Below are positions 2,607 through 54,822 of a stretch of DNA of 64,000 nucleotides, in pieces (within the stretch, counting starts at the first letter, position 1; each line of letters begins with the position of its first letter). The stretch covers positions 16,309-80,308 of the forward strand of contig JBIIOE010000001.1 of the NCBI GenBank assembly GCA_044337105.1, given 5' to 3'. The notes below the pieces were generated by a model. It was not told the origin of the DNA, did not search any database, and saw only the letters and a list, made by a program, of their open reading frames with translations. The translations under genes were made by a program, and so were the position numbers. Source of the DNA: Bdellovibrionota bacterium. GTDB taxonomy: Bacteria > Bdellovibrionota_C > UBA2361 > OMII01.

Positions 2607-2611
2607 TTTGC

Positions 2612-2670
2612 CCTTCGTGGAGTCGAGTGGGTGATAATGTGGCAGGCGGGGGTTTCGCCTCGCTTCCCTA
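2612..2670. repeat. Composite repeat: CTTCGTGGAGTCGAGTGGG module plus solo MITE terminus
   Basis: ccttcgtggagtcgagtggg (2612-2631), a 17-nt spacer, then gggggtttcgcctcgcttcccTA (2648-2670). Confidence 0.6.
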
Positions 2671-2704
2671 GACTCCCTTCCATACTTCACGTTACACTTA
2701 AGGT

Positions 2705-6535: not shown

Positions 6536-6632
6536 GAGAGCATTCTCCAAGCGATAAGTTGTAGAGGATGAGTTCGGCACGCGAGGAGCGTTGTTGCTAG
6601 CGGATGGCAGTACGCTCGTTTTTTTTCTCGGC

Positions 6633-6652
6633 CCTTCGTGGAATCGAGTGGG
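6633..6652. repeat. CTTCGTGGAATCGAGTGGG module (solo)
   Basis: ccttcgtggaatcgagtggg, preceded by a T8 run. Nearly identical to the modules at 2612, 25645, 26211 (reverse complement) and 55564 (reverse complement). Confidence 0.6.
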
Positions 6653-6756
6653 CGGCAACAAGGATAGAGGCAGCGCAAGTACTTATTTTAAGACATAAAT
6701 CGGGCCATTTTTACGTTTTCAAGCTCCCACTAGATCCGTCGATGAGCCTGGAAAAT

Positions 6757-12857: not shown

Positions 12858-13047
12858 TAGAGGGGAAGCGGGGGAAACCTACCCGTCACGAGAAAGTCGA
12901 GGTTGGTTTGATATTCGATTTTCGTGATGTGGAAAACCGCTGGTGTATCCGCTGCGAGACACCGAGGACTTTTCCACATCGCCCAAGTCGGAGAGCGGCC
13001 TAAGATCCGCCTTCGCGGCAGGAAGAAGGGGATTGCCTCGCTTCCTG
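12858..13047. mobile_element. MITE-like element, type 2
   Basis: Left end TAgaggggaagcgggggaaacctaccc, right end ggggattgcctcgcttcctga. The interior cgagaaagtcgaggttggtttgatattcgattttcgtgatgtggaaaacc is shared with copies at 26236 and 54701. Internal hairpin gatgtggaaaa/ttttccacatc. Confidence 0.7.
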
Positions 13048-13138
13048 AGGGATGACGTTCACTAAGAGAGCGGAGGTCTGGCCCTTTCCGAAGAAAGAGC
13101 GAAGAGGGGTATCGATACGTGCAACTATCGTGCTGCCC

Positions 13139-15562: not shown

Positions 15563-17452
15563 TTATCCTCCAACCATCATCTTGGTCATCTTCTTCACGA
15601 AGCCCGCGGGATCCTCGAGCTTCGTTCCTTCGCTGAGAAGTGCCTGACAATACAGCAGCTCGGACCACTCCTTTTGCGTGTCTCGCGGCAGGTCCTTCAT
15701 GCGAGTGAAGACCGGATGTTCTGGATTGAGCTCCATCACCCGCTTGGTTTTCGGCATCTCCTTACCCATCTGCCGATAAAACTGCTCCATATACTGTGAG
15801 TTGCCATCGTCGTTTACCAAGCAAACAGCGGAGTCGGTGAGGCGGGTCGACAGGCGTACGTCTTTGACGTGCTCAGACAGGGCGGATTTCACGATTTCCA
15901 TGAGGGACCCGAGCTGCTCTTGCTGCTCTTTGAGCTTCTCTTCGCGCTCTCTCTTTTCGTCATCGGAATCGAGTTCGAGCGAGGGGTCGGATACGGATTT
16001 GAACTCGAAGTCCTGATACTTGTCGAGGCGTGGTGCAACGAACTCGTCGACTGGGTGATCGAAGAGTAGCACTTCGTATCCCTTCTGGTTTAGTCGCTCG
16101 AGCAGCGGACTGCTCTTGAGTACCTCAAGTGCGTTGCCCGAGAGATAATAGATCGCCTTTTGTTCATGCTTCATGCGGGCGACATACTCAGCGAGTGTTG
16201 TCGGCTCGCTCTGAGTCGATGAATTAAAGAGAAAAATCGGCAAGAGGGAGTCCTTTTTGTCGAACTCTCGGACCAGCCCTTCCTTCAGTGTAGCACCGAA
16301 GTTGGCCCAAAACGCCTCGTATTGCTTGCGGTCATCGGTGAGCATGTCTGCGAGCGTCTTGAGAACCTTCGTCGTCAGCGCGCGTCGTATCTGGGCGATC
16401 TGTCGGTCCTGCTGAAGTATCTCTCGAGAAACGTTCAATGAGAGGTCGCTACTGTCAACCACGCCTTTCACGAAACGAAGATAGGGGGGTAGCAGCTCTT
16501 CGCAGTCATTCATAATCAGAACGCGCTTCACGTACAGTGAGAGTCCACGCTCGCTACCTTCGTAATCGAAATTCCAAGGGCGGGAAGGGGGGATGAACAT
16601 CAGAGCGTGAAACTCCATCGTTCCTTCCGCTTTGTAGTGAACCGTCTTGAGTGGTTCGGAGCGATCGTGTGTGAGGTGTTGATAGAACTCTTGGTACTCT
16701 TCGGTGCTAACGCTCGAAGCAGGCTTAGTCCAGATAGCTTTCTGACTATTGAGGACCACATCCTCTGTGGTCGTCACCTCCTGCGAGGGGTCTATCGTGC
16801 TCTTTTCCTTGCGTGATACCTCCATCTTCACCGGGTAGCCGATGAAGTCCGAGTGTTTCTTGATGATTGAACGGAGTACCCATTCGTCGGTGTAATCTTC
16901 GAGTCCACCTTCCTCGCCTGTGCTCGGTTTGAGGTGTAGGGTAATGGAGGTTCCTGTGCCAGCCTCGCGAACCGTGGGCTCGATGGTGTAGCTTCCCTTG
17001 CCATCCGACTCCCATCGCACGCCCTCGGACATACCTGCCCTCTGTGTCTCCACCGTGACCTTATCGGCTACGATGAATGCAGAGTAGAACCCCACACCGA
17101 ACTGGCCGATCAGATCGGCGTTCTTTTCCTTTGCCAGCTTGAACTGCTTGGTACCTGAGTGCGCTATCCGCCCCAGGTATTCTCGAATCTCCTCGGCGTT
17201 CATACCGATGCCGTTGTCCGATACCGTGAGCGTTCTAGCCTGCGGGTCTGGGGTAAGGCGAATGACGGGCTCGTACCCCTGCGGCATGAGGTCGGTGTTA
17301 GTAAGGGCTTCGATCTTCAATTTGTCGAGAGCGTCGGATGCGTTGGATACGAGCTCTCTCAAGAATATCTCTGGGTGCGAATAGAGAGAGTGGATAATAA
17401 GGTGAAGGAGCTCGTTAACTTCGGTTTGAAATTGTTCGGTTGTTTTTTCCAT
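15563..17452 (-). CDS. htpG: Molecular chaperone HtpG (Hsp90)
   Basis: N-terminal GHKL ATPase motifs EIFLRELVSNASDALDK, DNGIGM and GQFGVGFYSAF. Full-length, 629 aa. Confidence 0.97.
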   Translation of the reverse strand: MEKTTEQFQTEVNELLHLIIHSLYSHPEIFLRELVSNASDALDKLKIEALTNTDLMPQGYEPVIRLTPDPQARTLTVSDNGIGMNAEEIREYLGRIAHSGTKQFKLAKEKNADLIGQFGVGFYSAFIVADKVTVETQRAGMSEGVRWESDGKGSYTIEPTVREAGTGTSITLHLKPSTGEEGGLEDYTDEWVLRSIIKKHSDFIGYPVKMEVSRKEKSTIDPSQEVTTTEDVVLNSQKAIWTKPASSVSTEEYQEFYQHLTHDRSEPLKTVHYKAEGTMEFHALMFIPPSRPWNFDYEGSERGLSLYVKRVLIMNDCEELLPPYLRFVKGVVDSSDLSLNVSREILQQDRQIAQIRRALTTKVLKTLADMLTDDRKQYEAFWANFGATLKEGLVREFDKKDSLLPIFLFNSSTQSEPTTLAEYVARMKHEQKAIYYLSGNALEVLKSSPLLERLNQKGYEVLLFDHPVDEFVAPRLDKYQDFEFKSVSDPSLELDSDDEKREREEKLKEQQEQLGSLMEIVKSALSEHVKDVRLSTRLTDSAVCLVNDDGNSQYMEQFYRQMGKEMPKTKRVMELNPEHPVFTRMKDLPRDTQKEWSELLYCQALLSEGTKLEDPAGFVKKMTKMMVGG

Positions 17453-25144: not shown

Positions 25145-25495
25145 TCAGCTGGCGACCCCGACCTTGTCGAGCGACATTCCCCGACTAAGACCTGTGATGT
25201 TTTCGAGTTTCTCGCAGAACTGGTCAGCTGCGGATTTAGCCTGCTCCTCTGTCCAGCCGACCGCAGTGAGCTCGGAGACGTAGGAGTCCGCGAAGTCGAG
25301 ATAATATTGAATCATCTCGGCATCGTTGGCGATTTCGAAGAATCCCTGGCGTGGCATCATGGGGATATCCTTCACGTGAAATATCTCACGTTGCGAGATA
25401 AGACTGCTAAAATACACCCAAGCATCCCGTGTCAGTAATTGGGCGATGCGCTCCTGGTCCTTTGAAAGCTGCAAACAATACGAAAGCGTATTCAT
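25145..25495 (-). CDS. Hypothetical protein
   Basis: 116-aa ORF, convergent with the ACAD gene. No recognisable motif. Confidence 0.45.
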   Translation of the reverse strand: MNTLSYCLQLSKDQERIAQLLTRDAWVYFSSLISQREIFHVKDIPMMPRQGFFEIANDAEMIQYYLDFADSYVSELTAVGWTEEQAKSAADQFCEKLENITGLSRGMSLDKVGVAS

Positions 25496-25647
25496 AGAGA
25501 TAGTCTCTCGTGTGCTCGTGGGTTTATGGTAGCTGCCCGGATCGACCCCCTTTACGTGAGCGAAGTAGCCGGGACCCTACGACCGAATCCTCTGTATGTA
25601 GGATGCAGTCGACCTTCCTAAGGACGCGAGACAAAATAGGGGTTCAT

Positions 25648-26226
25648 CGTGGAATCGAGTGGGGAGTACCGAGGTCAGGGAGGGCACAAGTCGTTGTTTT
25701 AACTATAAATAGCACCTTTCCACGTGAACGTGCTCGTGCACGTAAACGTGAACGTACCCGAACGAGCAACTTTATCTCTTCGCTCCCGAACTAGAGCAGT
25801 ATGCTCGACTATGAAAAACTAGACGTCTATCGAACGGCGCTTGAGTTCGTCATAACTACGATTGAGATTCGCGATCATCTTCCTAGAGGAAGCGGGGAAC
25901 TCGTAGATCAGTTCAAGCGCGCATCTTTCTCGATAGTGCTCAACATTGCCGAAGGTGCTGGCAGGTTCAAACAGGCAGACAAACAGCGCTATTTCTCAAT
26001 AGCACGGGGTTCCGTCATGGAGTGTGGCGCACTCTTTGACCTGTTAAACGCTCTAAACTATCTCTCCCCCGACGAGTATCGCGCTGGTAAGCGTTTGCTT
26101 ACAAGGATTGCAGCCATGCTTTCCAAGCTATGCCTGCAGCCCGCATGATGCCTGTTTCGGGTACGTTCACGTTTACGCGCACGTTCCCGTGGGGATAACA
26201 CCGAGCCCTACCCACTCGATTTCACG
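25648..26226. mobile_element. Palindromic cassette carrying the four-helix-bundle ORF (rRNA-IVS-like architecture)
   Basis: Outer stem: 25648-25663 cgtggaatcgagtggg pairs with 26211-26226 cccactcgatttcacg (15/16). Inner stem: 25720-25763 pairs with 26154-26192. The reverse complement of the right arm, ccacgggaacgtgcgcgtaaacgtgaacgtacccgaaac, matches ccacgtgaacgtgc[tcgtgc]acgtaaacgtgaacgtacccgaac. The ORF 25801..26148 lies in the loop. Confidence 0.7.
25801..26148 (+). CDS. Four-helix-bundle protein (TIGR02436 / 23S rRNA intervening-sequence protein family, Avd-like)
   Basis: Family hallmarks LVDQFKRASFSIVLNIAEGAGR, DKQRYFSIARGSVMEC and an ~115-aa length. The ORF sits between long inverted repeats. 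Confidence 0.85.
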   Translation: MLDYEKLDVYRTALEFVITTIEIRDHLPRGSGELVDQFKRASFSIVLNIAEGAGRFKQADKQRYFSIARGSVMECGALFDLLNALNYLSPDEYRAGKRLLTRIAAMLSKLCLQPA

Positions 26227-26235
26227 AAGACCCAA

Positions 26236-26352
26236 AATAGGGAAGTAAGGCAAACCCGATCCCTGCTGCGGAAGCGGATCTTGGGTTGCCCTCCGATTTT
26301 TGCGATGTGGAACCATCGAATAGTTTTAGGAACGGCCCCAGCTGCCTTCCTG
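26236..26352. mobile_element. MITE-like element, type 2, degenerate right end
   Basis: TAgggaagtaaggcaaaccc..cggaagcggatcttgggttgccctccgatttttgcgatgtggaacc aligns with the 12858 copy. A possible right terminus, gctgccttcctgcgg, lies inside the 3' end of the BON gene. Confidence 0.5.
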
Positions 26353-26826
26353 CGGCACGCGTTCAACGAGATCCTCGACCCCATGTACCCCCCGCACACG
26401 TCGAATCACCGATACAACCCGTTGCGCCTGGTCCTGTTTTAGTTTTCCCTTCGCAACGACGCGCCCATCCATAACCTCGATCTCGATGGCGCTTGGATGA
26501 AGGAGTACACGTCCTATCTTCGAGCGAATCCTCTCCGCTAGCTTACGGTCATTGACTGGCTCTTCTCCTCGGAGCGCCTTGCGGGTCTCGGCAACTAACC
26601 CCTGAAGATGATTCCGAGCGTTACGGGCCTGCTTTTCAGCGAGCGCAATCGAACGGTTGGCGATGCTGGTAGTCCTATCCCGCGCGATGCCGCGTCTGTA
26701 TGGCCCCAAACGCGGGTCGAGGAAATACATTAGTGCTGCGCCGACCCCCATACCAGTCAACAACGATCCGACCGTCTGGCCTGCCGCGCCTACTACAGTT
26801 CCCTGTTGCTTTGTTCTCCGTTGCAT
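26326..26826 (-). CDS. BON domain-containing protein
   Basis: C-terminal BON pattern SAIEIEVMDGRVVAKGKL..QAQRVVSVIRRVRGVHGVEDLV. N-terminal Gly-rich hydrophobic segment. ATG 26826 has GGAG 5 nt upstream; an alternative GTG lies at 26868. Confidence 0.7.
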   Translation of the reverse strand: MQRRTKQQGTVVGAAGQTVGSLLTGMGVGAALMYFLDPRLGPYRRGIARDRTTSIANRSIALAEKQARNARNHLQGLVAETRKALRGEEPVNDRKLAERIRSKIGRVLLHPSAIEIEVMDGRVVAKGKLKQDQAQRVVSVIRRVRGVHGVEDLVERVPQEGSWGRS

Positions 26827-34266: not shown

Positions 34267-34734
34267 TTAGGCGGCGCAGTCCGAGGCAAGGAGCGTAGAC
34301 TCTGCGCCGGCTACGGCCGTCGCGTGATGCAAGACGAAACTAACGATACTCGACACCGCCCGACGCCGGGTTAGTGTCAGCAGTCCATCCAGCCTTAACT
34401 CCCTAGCGAAGGCCGCCTCGACCCGCAGAATCTCAGAAGGAGGGCGATTGCTGTAGAGATCACAGAGAAGGGAACCTATCCCCTGCACCACTTCTGACTC
34501 TGAAGCGCAGCTGAAGAAGCATCGACCCGCTTGCGTGTGAGCCTCAAGCCAAAGCCCCGAAAGACAACCCGGCACCCGTCGCTCTGAGGTACGACTACTA
34601 GCCGCAACGGGTAGGTGGATCGCCTCCCGCTCCATGAGCCAGGTGAGCTTGTCTTCAGCGCTCTCAAGAGCAAGATACTCCTCGACGAGGGCTGCGTGTT
34701 CAGGCTGACTAAGAAATGGTGTCAGGGTGTTCAT
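34267..34734 (-). CDS. SufE/CsdE-like sulfur acceptor protein
   Basis: RVPGCLSGLWLEA matches the SufE active-site Cys loop (pGCqSqvWl). ATG 34734 is preferred. The extension to 34770 would approach the repeat at 34755. Confidence 0.75.
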   Translation of the reverse strand: MNTLTPFLSQPEHAALVEEYLALESAEDKLTWLMEREAIHLPVAASSRTSERRVPGCLSGLWLEAHTQAGRCFFSCASESEVVQGIGSLLCDLYSNRPPSEILRVEAAFARELRLDGLLTLTRRRAVSSIVSFVLHHATAVAGAESTLLASDCAA

Positions 34735-34754
34735 ACAATGCTTCGTAGCACACC

Positions 34755-34917
34755 TAGGGAAGCGCGGCAAAACCTACCCCATAGTCTCACTTTTGAAATA
34801 ACCACGTGAACGTGCTCGTGCTCGTAAACGTGAACATACCCGAAAAACTTGAGGTTTTTGTTTCGGGTACGTTTACGTTCACGTGCGAGGAAACATAGGT
34901 TTTGCCTCGCTTCCCTA
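34755..34917. mobile_element. MITE-like element, type 1, containing the 71-nt hairpin module
   Basis: TA-gggaagcgcggcaaaacct...aggttttgcctcgcttccc-TA terminal inverted repeats (1 mismatch). The flanks reconstruct CTAG. The interior hairpin ccacgtgaacgtgctcgtgctcgtaaacgtgaacatacccgaaa/tttcgggtacgtttacgttcacgtgcgagg is homologous to the arms at 25720 and 26154. Confidence 0.75.
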
Positions 34918-34996
34918 GCGCTGGAAGTGCAGGGGGCTGCTATCCAGTCGAAAATTCAAAGATTTGACGCTTGAACAGCGTAGTCGCGCGCTGTCT

Positions 34997-35338
34997 CTAT
35001 GTGCCGGTTCGTTTGTAGCGACCGAGATCGGCCCCGCTTATCTCTATGATTTCATCGAGCTCCAATGGGGCTGGTGAAAAGATAAAGCGCCCCTCTCCCT
35101 CGATAGGCGGCTTGGCAGTCATACGATATGCCCCTTCGTGCAACGAAAGATCGGTCTCAATCTGGCGAAAGTCAGGCGCTCCTTTCGGTCGCAGGTGCAC
35201 AGCCTTTACCTTTTGATGTCTAACCGAGAACCCACTGTCGTTGAGTAGGTAGACATAACCGGCCCACCGGGCCCTTCGGGAGAGCTCCCACACCAGAGCT
35301 GCACTAATAATCGAAACGACGATTGTGAACACAAGCAT
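34997..35338 (-). CDS. Hypothetical membrane-anchored protein
   Basis: 113-aa ORF with the N-terminal TM MLVFTIVVSIISAALVW. Confidence 0.45.
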   Translation of the reverse strand: MLVFTIVVSIISAALVWELSRRARWAGYVYLLNDSGFSVRHQKVKAVHLRPKGAPDFRQIETDLSLHEGAYRMTAKPPIEGEGRFIFSPAPLELDEIIEISGADLGRYKRTGT

Positions 35339-40305: not shown

Positions 40306-40708
40306 TGAGGCGCAGCAAAACCGTTGCGGTCCACCCCTGGCTCGTGATTCTGCCGTCTTAAATCAAGATGCGGTGAGAGTTCTGGCTCTATGAGCTGCTT
40401 AGCAACCGATTGACGCTTTCCGGCGGCAGCACGGTGCTCCCTCCAGCCCACGCAGAGTGTGGGGGAGATTTGACCCGTAGGCTCGTTTCAGTCTTTGCAA
40501 ACGAGCTCCCAAGGTGCGTTGTTCCTGGGGAGTATCTAGGAAACTACGTAGGAAACGTCGATAAACTGGATCGAACTTCCGTACGCATAGAGTAAACACG
40601 TAGGTGGATGTCTTAACAGACTACAGTCAGCGTTTGCTCTTCGTTCGGTTGTCTCTTCTCTGCCCGCATTTTCGTGGTGTCACAAAAACAAAAACGAAGG
40701 AGAGACGT

Positions 40709-40864
40709 ATGGCATTAGTAGTTGGCCCCACCGACAAAGAGAATCGAGAGGGATTTGGCGAGTTTTTACGGGAACAACAAAAGCAGGTCACCGAGCTTAG
40801 AGGAAGCGATGGTACTTCCGTGTTCGCACTCGCAGACTACCTTCTGGGGGACTGGACAATCTAA
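40709..40864 (+). CDS. Small hypothetical protein
   Basis: 51 aa from ATG 40709, with AAGGAGAG 6 nt upstream. No motif. Confidence 0.3.
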   Translation: MALVVGPTDKENREGFGEFLREQQKQVTELRGSDGTSVFALADYLLGDWTI

Positions 40865-40916: not shown

Positions 40917-40949
40917 TAGGGAAGGGAGGGGGTTTGCCTCGCTTCCCTA
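40917..40949. mobile_element. Minimal MITE remnant (terminal repeats only)
   Basis: TAgggaagggagggggtttgcctcgcttcccTA. An 11-bp perfect inverted repeat ccctagggaag/cttccctaggg includes the flanks. Confidence 0.6.
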
Positions 40950-41306
40950 GGGGACTTGGGCTTATGAACGCATGAAGGCTGTGAGCCCCGAAGTTTTCTC
41001 GTGCGACGGAAAGCTTCCGGCTCCCGGCACATGCCTGTTCTTACCAATTCCAGACACTGCAGAAAGGATGGTGTCAATTTTTCATCTCCACACAGAGGTG
41101 CAATATCAACCACTTTGCCCAGACAAAGACCGGTATAGACTTGTTTGCGTAAGCTCCTAGCTGTTTGCCCATCTCGGGGCTTTCGGCAGTGCGGTATCCA
41201 TATCAAACCGACATATCAGAGATTGCTGACTATCCTTCCGCGCGTGTCACCTGTAGGCTCTTTGTCGTACCTTCGTTAGAGTACATCATCAATCGGAGAT
41301 ATTATC

Positions 41307-42484: not shown

Positions 42485-42494
42485 CCCCCCCCCC
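42485..42494. repeat. C10 homopolymer tract bracketed by two GAGGCCTC palindromes
   Basis: cgGAGGCCTCccccccccc GAGGCCTCgaac, intergenic. Confidence 0.8.
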
Positions 42495-42567
42495 CGAGGC
42501 CTCGAACAAGCTCAAGAAGTGAACGGAACGGAAGCGCAAGGCAAGTACTTAGTCGAGATTGATATCG

Positions 42568-42659
42568 GTAAGGAAGCGCGGCAAAACCTACCCCATAGTC
42601 TCACTTTTGAAATAACCACGTGAACGTGCGAGGAAACATAGGTTTTGCCTCGCTTCCCT
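42568..42659. mobile_element. MITE-like element, type 1, lacking the hairpin module
   Basis: Apart from the first TIR base after the TA (a vs g), it is identical to 34755-34917 except for the absence of 71 nt bounded by acgtgc direct repeats. TA flanks both ends. Confidence 0.75.
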
Positions 42660-42845
42660 AAGGTTGCTGACGAGGTTCGCCAATCCTTCGCAGGCTCTTC
42701 CTTCGGCAACCGCAGCCAAACAAATACAGCGCTGTCCGAGGAAAGCGAGGTATACCAAGGATTGAGAGAAACTTGTACGCATGAATGTCAATAGGGCAGT
42801 CTGAGGTTGTTCTAGTTCGGTTGCACAGGCGCTTCGGTGTGAGGA

Positions 42846-45215: not shown

Positions 45216-45437
45216 CACAAGGTCACTACCTTCGGAGAGAAGCCTGTGGGAGACCTGGTAAATCTCGAAATTGAACGAGGCACTCAGGTGGTTGTAGACA
45301 CCATGAGAGACTTCCTCGAAGAGCGATTTGGAAAGCTGCTGCCTGCGTTCGAGAGTCTGCTGGAACGGTCCGGGATGACCGCAGAAAGCCTGGTAGGCGT
45401 TACGGCGCCGGCCTTACCGGGATCGAAGACCGTATAG
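45216..45437 (+). pseudogene. Riboflavin synthase C-terminal remnant
   Basis: Translation HKVTTFGEKPVGDLVNLEIERGTQVVVDTMRDFL parallels the C-terminus of E. coli riboflavin synthase as I recall it (..[31 protein letters not shown]). No N-terminal ~150 aa and no start codon are present. It begins directly after the 595-aa gene stop. Confidence 0.6.
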
Positions 45438-54700: not shown

Positions 54701-54822
54701 TAGGGAGGCAAGTCCCTGACTCGGCGAAATACAAGAAGTCGCTGATTTTCGTCCTGCCGAAAGTCGAATATCAACCCAATCTCCACCTTCTCGCTACGGG
54801 CAGGTTGTGCCTCGTCTCCCTA
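54701..54822. mobile_element. MITE-like element, type 2 (inverted relative to 12858 copy)
   Basis: The reverse complement ctttagggagacgaggcacaacctgcccgtagcgagaaggtggagattgggttgatattcgactttcg aligns with 12855-12923. TA at both ends. The right-hand TA is part of the radC stop codon. Confidence 0.65.

Follow-up and report, generated by a model that had tools for sequence, protein, structure and literature searches.

The stretch of DNA studied here (64,000 nt of contig JBIIOE010000001.1 from a Bdellovibrionota bacterium, called the window below) contains two nearly identical copies of a small element, A and B, of which only A carries a hairpin-forming segment of 71 nt. The question is where this hairpin came from and how the two copies came to differ in it. 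A sequence-only reading of the window had described the hairpin as a module with three states (empty site, bare hairpin, and hairpin plus open reading frame (ORF)), and had offered two mechanisms, the insertion of a mobile hairpin with a short duplication or the microhomology-mediated deletion of a palindrome. The explanation that we prefer, with a probability of roughly 0.8, is that A and B are insertions of a transposase-less element, called Type II here, that the hairpin at its core shares its arms with an ORF-bearing cassette similar to the intervening sequences (IVS) of 23S rRNA, and that B arose by deletion. The two copies and their parts are the following, in window coordinates.

34755..34918, + strand: Type II non-autonomous terminal inverted repeat (TIR) element, copy A, comprising the TIRs and the duplicated target
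34755-34757 and 34916-34918, + strand: target duplication TAG of copy A
34758-34776 and 34896-34915, + strand: TIRs of copy A, GGAAGCGCGGCAAAACCTA and TAGGTTTTGCCTCGCTTCCC
34802..34886, + strand: internal hairpin of copy A, left arm CCACGTGAACGTGCTCGTGCTCGTAAACGTGAACATACCCGAAA, right arm TTTCGGGTACGTTTACGTTCACGTGC
34816..34886, + strand: the 71 nt present in A only (TCGTGC...CACGTGC), with the repeat ACGTGC at 34810-34815 and 34881-34886
42569..42661, + strand: Type II element, copy B, identical to A apart from the putative 71-nt deletion
42569-42571 and 42659-42661, + strand: target duplication TAA of copy B
42616..42629, + strand: left-arm remnant in copy B, 14 nt, CCACGTGAACGTGC

When positions 34816-34886 are taken out of A, the remaining 92-nt string has one mismatch to B, G versus A at base 3, and the length difference shows 6 nt of microhomology (ACGTGC) at the ends of the 71 nt. 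Direct reading thus bears out the near-identity of the two copies, and the folding result agrees with the claim that the extra 71 nt, bounded by ACGTGC, form a hairpin. Copy A folds into a nested hairpin of -72.4 kcal/mol (z = -7.5, with 0 of 200 shuffles as stable), and copy B still reaches -35.4 kcal/mol (z = -6.1); the TIRs of copy A extend over 23 nt with 96% complementarity. The single G/A difference does exist, but it had been placed in the first base of the TIR. It is repeated on the right flank, with CTTCCC-TAG in A and CTTCCC-TAA in B, so that the full flanks are TAG-GGAAGCG...CGCTTCCC-TAG in A and TAA-GGAAGCG...CGCTTCCC-TAA in B. Because both flanks change together, and as a direct rather than an inverted repeat, the base belongs to a target duplication of 3-4 bp and not to the TIR. 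Other Type II elements behave in the same way, their duplications being TAG/TAG or TAA/TAA and changing together on both sides; in related genomes the flanks are mostly TAG on both sides, and two loci, L053 and L091, have TAA on both sides (L-numbers are our labels for related loci retrieved from genomes and metagenomes). A reading as a 2-bp duplication (TA) in which the first base of the TIR has mutated was rejected, because three elements are flanked by TAA as a direct repeat at both ends.

Since TAG..TAG and TAA..TAA are different target duplications, A and B are independent insertions: the same small transposase-less TIR element was inserted at two targets. An assembly artefact is ruled out because six contigs from four independent samples match the window with 100% identity across these sites. 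Several of the matching contigs terminate inside the repeats, at 25770 and 34779, which is expected of dispersed repeats. A run of about 13 C, flanked by GGAGGCCTC and GAGGCCTC, was noticed at about 42485-42500, some 70 nt upstream of copy B; it could be a slippage-prone homopolymer or an assembly-sensitive site.

The origin of the hairpin is best approached from the ORF-bearing element in the same window, which consists of the following parts.

25631..26233, + strand: Type I non-autonomous TIR element with the IVS-protein (IVP) cassette, 603 nt, ends GGTTCATCGTGGAATCGAGTGGG and CCCACTCGATTTCACGAAGACCC
25623-25630 and 26234-26241: perfect 8-bp target duplication AAAATAGG of this Type I element
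25720..25765, + strand: left arm of the ORF-enclosing stem, made of a 6-nt repeat, one hexamer more than the right arm
25801..26148, + strand: 115-aa ORF, PF05635 / TIGR02436 (23S rRNA IVS protein, four-helix bundle)
26153..26192, + strand: right arm of the ORF-enclosing stem

The ORF matches PF05635 (23S_rRNA_IVP) with E = 1e-24 and also the four-helix-bundle family TIGR02436, and the nearest solved structure to its product is 2GSC, deposited with five chains. The sequence-only reading had regarded the arms of the A hairpin as homologous to those around this ORF, and the alignments confirm it: 25720-25762 and 34802-34844 are 95% identical over 43 nt, and 26153-26180 and 34859-34886 are 89% identical over 28 nt. 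Folded as RNA, the region 25712-26200 is predicted to form a stem of about 37 bp closing around the ORF (z = -5.75). The PF05635 ORF is under purifying selection, with dN/dS values of 0.06-0.14 among five full-length ORFs, for which dS is saturated. Among the three closest full-length copies (window, L101 and L095) the arms are 81-92% identical versus 41-58% at third codon positions, and the arm identity is 65-77% in comparisons with the more distant L099. The stem would be kept for its service to the cassette, most likely as an RNase III-type processing stem that frees the ORF transcript, as in the IVS of rRNA.

Close homologues of the ORF (74-94% identical) are numerous in the database and lie for the most part on very short contigs; truncated versions are likewise numerous. 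As a separate observation, L097 and L098 (ERZ2680843 NODE_906) have identical PF05635 ORFs in a tandem array of at least 6 units with an exact 700-nt period, or seven units if an ORF cut at the contig edge is included, and each ORF is preceded by a 40-aa ORF and extra arms. The same locus in another assembly, L099, shows one copy and then the contig end. The units of the array may really have been amplified in tandem, or the array may be a cycle made by the assembler.

The same stem, with or without remnants of the ORF, is found in three unrelated TIR backbones, with the homology starting and stopping at the base of the stem. Type I elements, such as the one with the ORF, have TIRs of 26 nt with 85% complementarity that are conserved across loci, ends GGYTCATCGTGGAATCGAGTGGG and CCCACTCGATTYCACGAAGASCC, and an 8-bp target duplication. 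Besides that of the window element, perfect or near-perfect 8-bp duplications are TCAATAAT in L101, where it surrounds a full-length ORF copy, AAATTTCA in L085 with a different cargo, AAATACTT in L071 and CAGATTTT in L057. Type II is the element of A and B. Type III elements, with ends GAGACTGTAACGCAAACTGTGGATG... and ...CCATACACACTTTCTGTTACAGTCTC, also carry the hairpin and have 8-bp duplications. Hybrid ends occur in L017 and L040. The elements measure 86-603 nt, and the 115-aa PF05635 protein is their sole ORF; no transposase is encoded. A syntenic relative, L111 (SufE 81% identical), has neither element A nor the IVP element, and its intergenic lengths are 58-100 versus 263 nt and about 200 versus 830 nt in the window; these regions are too diverged for base-level alignment, and so only presence or absence was scored. 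L111 also has a TIR-only Type II mini-hairpin of its own at 15617-15668 (TAAGGAAGCGAGGCGAAAC...GTTTCGCCTCTCTTCCCTA). The carriers are thus a real family of non-autonomous elements with an IVS-like cassette, and they would be moved in trans by transposases, ISL3-like and IS5-like, that recognise their ends.

We also scanned the reference genomes with the motif at the arm tips, which gave at least 88 loci, mostly in metagenome-assembled genomes (MAGs) labelled Bdellovibrionota or as unclassified Proteobacteria/Pseudomonadota; matches in other phyla were treated as chance. As lower bounds, there are at least 6-13 loci per MAG. Among the matches listed, pairing of the arm tips gave 45 hairpins, with 19 or more distinct inner lengths between 11 and 401 nt. 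Short ones have 11 nt (7 copies) or 16-17 nt (13 copies including A); these are followed by 22, 41, 68, 84, 92 (2 copies), 99 (2 copies) and 109 nt, then by 128-155 nt (8 copies), 200, 220-221 and 244-245 nt, and finally by 393 nt (the ORF copy of the window) and 401 nt. Several of the intermediate forms can be read as internal deletions of the ORF when the window copy is the reference: 25868-26016 is missing in L065 and L078, 25868-26037 is missing in L086 and L091, and deletions beginning at 25841 are found in L056, L051 and L036. In L080 nothing is left of the ORF but a few codons at each end, and L091 has a partial ORF inside a Type II backbone. Since L065 and L078 lie in one genome and have the same deletion with different flanks, this derivative was copied after the deletion. 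Between the loop of the bare-hairpin family (...CTTGATGTTTTTGTTTCGGG) and the 3' end of the ORF (CATGATGCCTGTTTCGGG) there is a resemblance, which is no more than suggestive. In one MAG (JBIIHY), a Type I subfamily of five copies (L081, L071, L019, L017 and L040) has a loop of about 130-155 nt that is unrelated to the ORF and includes an (ACCT)n tract varying from 2 to 7 units between copies. A Type I element in L055 (4729-5303) was also seen to keep the first and last few ORF codons, with the roughly 330 nt between them replaced by unrelated sequence of similar length.

As judged from these alignments, the ORF-bearing, ORF-fragment and bare-hairpin forms can be shown to make up a graded series of loop lengths in which several fragment forms map as internal ORF deletions, and some deletion derivatives were re-amplified at new sites. 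The division into three discrete states is too tidy for a series of this kind: its states are points on a continuum of decay by deletion, with the hairpin being the leftover stem of the ORF cassette. A continuum of internal deletions was the outcome which the sequence-only reading had set against a discrete module, and the length series comes close to it; the hairpin nevertheless survives as a separable module, given its presence in three unrelated backbones.

That one stem sits in three unrelated backbones, with the homology ending at its base, is also what would be seen if the stem and its ORF formed a cassette that moves by itself. The periodic arms would then serve as its ends, the four-helix-bundle protein might be a cofactor, and the TIR backbones would be landing sites and later amplifiers. 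Homologues only 41-53% identical to the window ORF, from unrelated assemblies, speak for such an arrangement, since they are bracketed by long inverted repeats of short tandem units, (CGGGCT)n in L107, (CACGTN)n in L108, NNCGTN/GAACNT in L118 and a 7-nt unit (GAAGTGA)n in L113, and no TIR backbone is recognisable around the arms of these four. The L108 cassette fills an intergenic gap and has a 10-bp direct repeat, GCGGCGCTAG, on its flanks. The partial ORF in the Type II backbone of L091 and the purifying selection on the ORF point in the same direction. On the other hand, there is no visible target duplication at the junctions of stem and backbone in the window-type family, the repeat of L108 is a single case, and ORF-less deletion derivatives still spread with the duplications of their backbones. 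PF05635 proteins are not known to have nuclease or recombinase activity. Recombination could also shift the stem between backbones, as indicated by backbone chimeras such as the one at 2610-2671. We consider a self-moving cassette doubtful, and it is in any case compatible with B as a deletion product. One further distant homologue, L115, has left-arm remnants only. A scan of viral contigs for homologues gave two loci, one of them informative. L113, a contig of IMG/VR, has a complete bare hairpin of the same 7-nt units (1555-1664) directly after a PF05635 ORF with an upstream left arm; a duplication or the nesting of one cassette in another may account for this order of left arm, ORF, left arm' and right arm.

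The difference between A and B itself is explained by the structure of the arms. They consist of tandem 6-nt units NNCGTN, CGT returns in either arm with a period of 6 nt, and the hairpin contains 18 hexamers that are each present more than once. Because this 6-nt repeat puts such repeats in both arms, ACGTGC at the boundaries is inherent to the arms and is not a target duplication. B is not an empty site either, as it retains 14 nt of the left arm (CCACGTGAACGTGC) as a deletion scar; this sequence is the base of the left arm, lies in the paired stem of the ORF copy at 25 kb and is the arm base in all relatives. A metagenome scan with CTCACTTTTGAANNNNNCACGTG returned only five loci, namely two informative siblings, one truncated relative and two chance matches. 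The siblings share the flanks specific to A and B (CCCCATAGTCTCACTTTTGAAATAACC in L102 and L106, CGAGGAAACATAGG in L102). L102 has the complete hairpin of 102 nt, in L106 the left arm is short of one hexamer (6 nt) and the right spacer of 13 nt, and compared with L102 the hairpin is 18 nt shorter in A (in the right arm) and 89 nt shorter in B. A right arm longer than that of A (...ACGTTCAGGTGCACGAGCACGTTCACGTG) is also found in related Type II elements, at least 9 of which, in related MAGs, are built around a hairpin of about 100 nt or more. The ends of the arm deletions that lie within the arms fall in the strict 6-nt repeat. In L087, an independent Type II copy without a hairpin, the junction is different (CACGTG joined to CACGTG). 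The comparison of siblings shows that the arms of the A/B subfamily were eroded stepwise by deletions ending in the hexamer repeat. The precursor of B would have been a copy like A, in which strand slippage or stimulation by the hairpin led to a deletion between the two ACGTGC repeats; this could have happened in the source copy before its insertion or after the insertion.

A second possibility is that gene conversion or unequal recombination between dispersed copies of different arm length produced B or A. The many dispersed and nearly identical copies, the chimera at 2610-2671 and the hybrid ends of L017 and L040 speak for it. However, no donor with the junction of B was found, and a 6-nt microhomology together with a hairpin spanning the deletion is the classic setting for slippage. 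We regard this origin as improbable, and the hairpin would have been lost either way.

Less probable still is the insertion of a mobile 71-nt hairpin into a B-like element with duplication of a 6-bp target ACGTGC, one of the two mechanisms offered initially. A perfect 6-nt direct repeat bounds the 71 nt, the flanks are identical and the hairpin is found in three different backbones, as an insertion would have it. Yet the supposed target, CCACGTGAACGTGC, is already the arm base in the ORF copy and in all relatives, and the part of the arm on the left of the proposed insertion point would need to have been present beforehand. The siblings have other arm deletions of different sizes, repeats of the ACGTGC type are a by-product of the 6-nt repeat, L087 has another junction, and no direct repeats are seen at the stem junctions with the Type I or Type II backbone. 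The insertion is largely refuted by this evidence. The sibling series, the remnant CCACGTGAACGTGC in B, the hexamer repeats and the L087 junction favour a slipped-strand or hairpin-stimulated deletion instead, and of the two mechanisms it is thus the palindrome deletion that stands.

That the hairpin is a host regulatory structure (a terminator, an attenuator or an element like the repetitive extragenic palindromes (REP)) kept to control neighbours such as sufE is hardly credible, for although only 21 nt separate copy A from the start codon of sufE downstream and its fold is very stable, it is missing at the orthologous sufE locus of L111, lies inside a TIR element with target duplications, exists in multiple copies in unrelated contexts, and has no U-tract, no terminator or promoter match and no match to an Rfam family.

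Several points weigh against the preferred explanation, in which A and B are independent insertions, the core is a leftover stem and B has arisen by deletion. The deletion in B is inferred and not directly observed, as no strain was found that keeps the hairpin intact at this locus; all available assemblies are identical. A search of related loci, about 0.7 Mb in total, gave neither an autonomous element with matching ends nor any TIR pair of more than 650 nt; it is because of this that mobilisation in trans is proposed. The deletions inside the ORF have no microhomology on the window reference and therefore need another mechanism, for example interrupted gap repair. Several loops contain sequence unrelated to the ORF, and deletion alone is therefore insufficient for every form. 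The covariation of the arms is uninformative (both sides are changed in any sequence for 3 of the 30 predicted pairs, with a term of +0.26 kcal/mol), so selection on pairing is not separable from sequence conservation. Finally, no promoter or terminator consensus was recognised: promoter-like sites are missing from both 25450-26400 and 34600-35100, and the terminator scan gave three terminator-like matches in 25450-26400, with about 0.9 expected from shuffles, and none in 34600-35100.

Other elements of these kinds are also present in the window, as listed below.

2610..2671, + strand: short chimera of a left end from Type I (GCCCTTCGTGGAGTCGAGTGGG) and a right end from Type II (GGTTTCGCCTCGCTTCCCTAG)
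6630..6748, + strand: Type I element with stem and ORF nearly all lost, only ...TTTTTACGT being left at the junction
12862..13048, + strand: element with Type II-like ends and a different, hairpin-free interior, with a homologue at L073 6892-7075
40917..40950, + strand: minimal Type II element consisting of TIRs only (CTAGGGAAGGGAGGGGGTTTGCCTCGCTTCCCTAG)

The family of 12862-13048 has an interior of about 185 nt, and a related inverted copy at 26239-26320 adjoins the IVP element. The latter was inserted just outside the end of this copy, so that its AAAATAGG duplication overlaps the TAG flanking the GGAAG end of the copy. Degenerate Type II-like ends were observed at 45435 (TAGGGACGAGAGGCAAAGA) and at 54746-54822 (GTTGTGCCTCGTCTCCCTA), the second lying within a 61-nt inverted match to 12876-12936. 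When the whole window was searched against all Rfam families, the only hit was a SAM riboswitch (RF00162; 40357-40474, + strand, 45 bits, just above the gathering score), and none fell on the elements. The riboswitch lies downstream of a D-Ala-D-Ala ligase-like gene and upstream of a small ORF (40604-40864).

The pair of copies carries a practical message: a repeat pair that looks like a filled and an empty site can be the product of a deletion, and an apparent boundary repeat can stem from a periodic arm. The dispersed elements also explain why MAG assemblies break at these positions. The more interesting result lies one level up, in a cassette of the IVS type, under selection, that is carried by transposase-less elements of three kinds. 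Where the ORF-bearing IVS of rRNA come from has been an open question since the early 1990s (proposals are summarised in PMC4990558). An IVS-type layout of stem plus ORF outside rRNA bears on this question, as it comes with fresh target duplications, many copies, a full deletion series and an ORF under purifying selection, and it provides a concrete system for studying how the cassette is moved, which purpose the stem serves and which function the protein has. As a tentative extension, to which we give less than even odds, PF05635 genes with periodic inverted-repeat arms might be a widespread selfish cassette, mobile or readily captured, that exists also outside rRNA. The 23S IVS would then be one of its landing sites, the hairpin-cored elements of Bdellovibrionota-type genomes would be its decay products, and the protein, by acting on the stem in its RNA or DNA form, would help the cassette to persist or spread.

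When compared with known systems, two can be set aside. REP sequences and bacterial interspersed mosaic elements (BIMEs), whose palindromes are about 35 nt long and share a conserved GTAG head and which are moved by REP-associated tyrosine transposases (RAYTs), were rejected, because the arms have no GTAG head and there are TIRs and target duplications instead; no RAYT-type family is among the Pfam hits listed for the neighbouring called genes. The Avd protein of diversity-generating retroelements is likewise a four-helix-bundle protein of PF05635, but such a retroelement was rejected since no reverse transcriptase is listed among the neighbouring genes. None occurs among the precomputed Pfam hits of genes called between about 15.9 and 44.7 kb, a range that extends about 10 kb from the ORF on its upstream side and 19 kb on its downstream side, template and variable repeats not having been specifically searched. 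The Correia elements of Neisseria are small intergenic TIR elements that form long hairpins when transcribed and use short TA-containing targets. By this general description the layout of the present elements is like that of Correia elements and of hairpin-forming miniature inverted-repeat transposable elements (MITEs); the sequences are unrelated, and the elements here have a second, inner stem with a 6-nt repeat that comes from a gene cassette.

As to the backbones, the Type I ends (GGCTCATCGTGGAATCG...) resemble those of the ISL3 family, and the 8-bp target duplication is mostly AT-rich. ISArsp7 of this family has the left end GGCTCTTCGCGGTTGG... and an 8-bp direct repeat (PMC6305408). When Type I (GGCTCATCGTGG...) is set against ISArsp7 (GGCTCTTCGCGG...), GGCTCTT-type ends and an 8-bp direct repeat are seen in both, which is a resemblance only. 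Unlike ISL3 elements, those studied here have no transposase gene, their longest copy is about 600 nt, and their only ORF is PF05635. For Type II, the criterion of the IS5 family was taken as GGAAG... ends with a YTAR-type duplication of 3-4 bp; the ends GGAAGCGAGGC have only 5-6 nt in common with ISKpn26 of that family (GGAAGGTGCGAA), and the CTAG or TAA flanks fit 3 or 4 bp. With MITEs and mobile insertion cassettes in general, the elements share TIRs, target duplications, the lack of a transposase, a small size (90-600 nt), multiple copies and intergenic position, and also presence or absence between relatives, families of internal deletions, and nesting or chimeras. They differ in their cargo, which is an IVS-type cassette of stem and ORF common to three unrelated backbones. 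The literature searched on PF05635, TIGR02436 or IVS proteins with mobile elements does not describe TIR elements that carry PF05635 cassettes, nor the periodic arms of such cassettes.

The closest known system is the 23S rRNA IVS of Leptospira and Coxiella burnetii (S23p). Both have a PF05635 ORF of about 115 aa inside inverted repeats that fold into a long stem, and the size is similar, about 470 nt here and 428-444 nt in Coxiella, where a 28-bp stem around the S23p ORF is cut by RNase III (PMC4990558). The rRNA IVS elements are regarded as selfish, and it has been proposed that they are remnants of transposons, or a mobile element whose ORF aids its movement (PMC4990558). An rRNA IVS is located in helix 25 or 45 of a 23S rRNA gene. 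By location the present cassette is not an rRNA IVS, because no rRNA is present in the window (Rfam) and no rRNA gene was recognised when all fetched loci were searched for 23S and 16S motifs; a lone 16-mer like the sarcin-ricin loop in L007, where the other two 23S motifs had no match, was treated as chance. In contrast to the rRNA IVS, the cassette lies between protein-coding genes, its stem is built from a 6-nt repeat, and it is carried inside TIR elements that have target duplications, occur in many copies and come with deletion derivatives.

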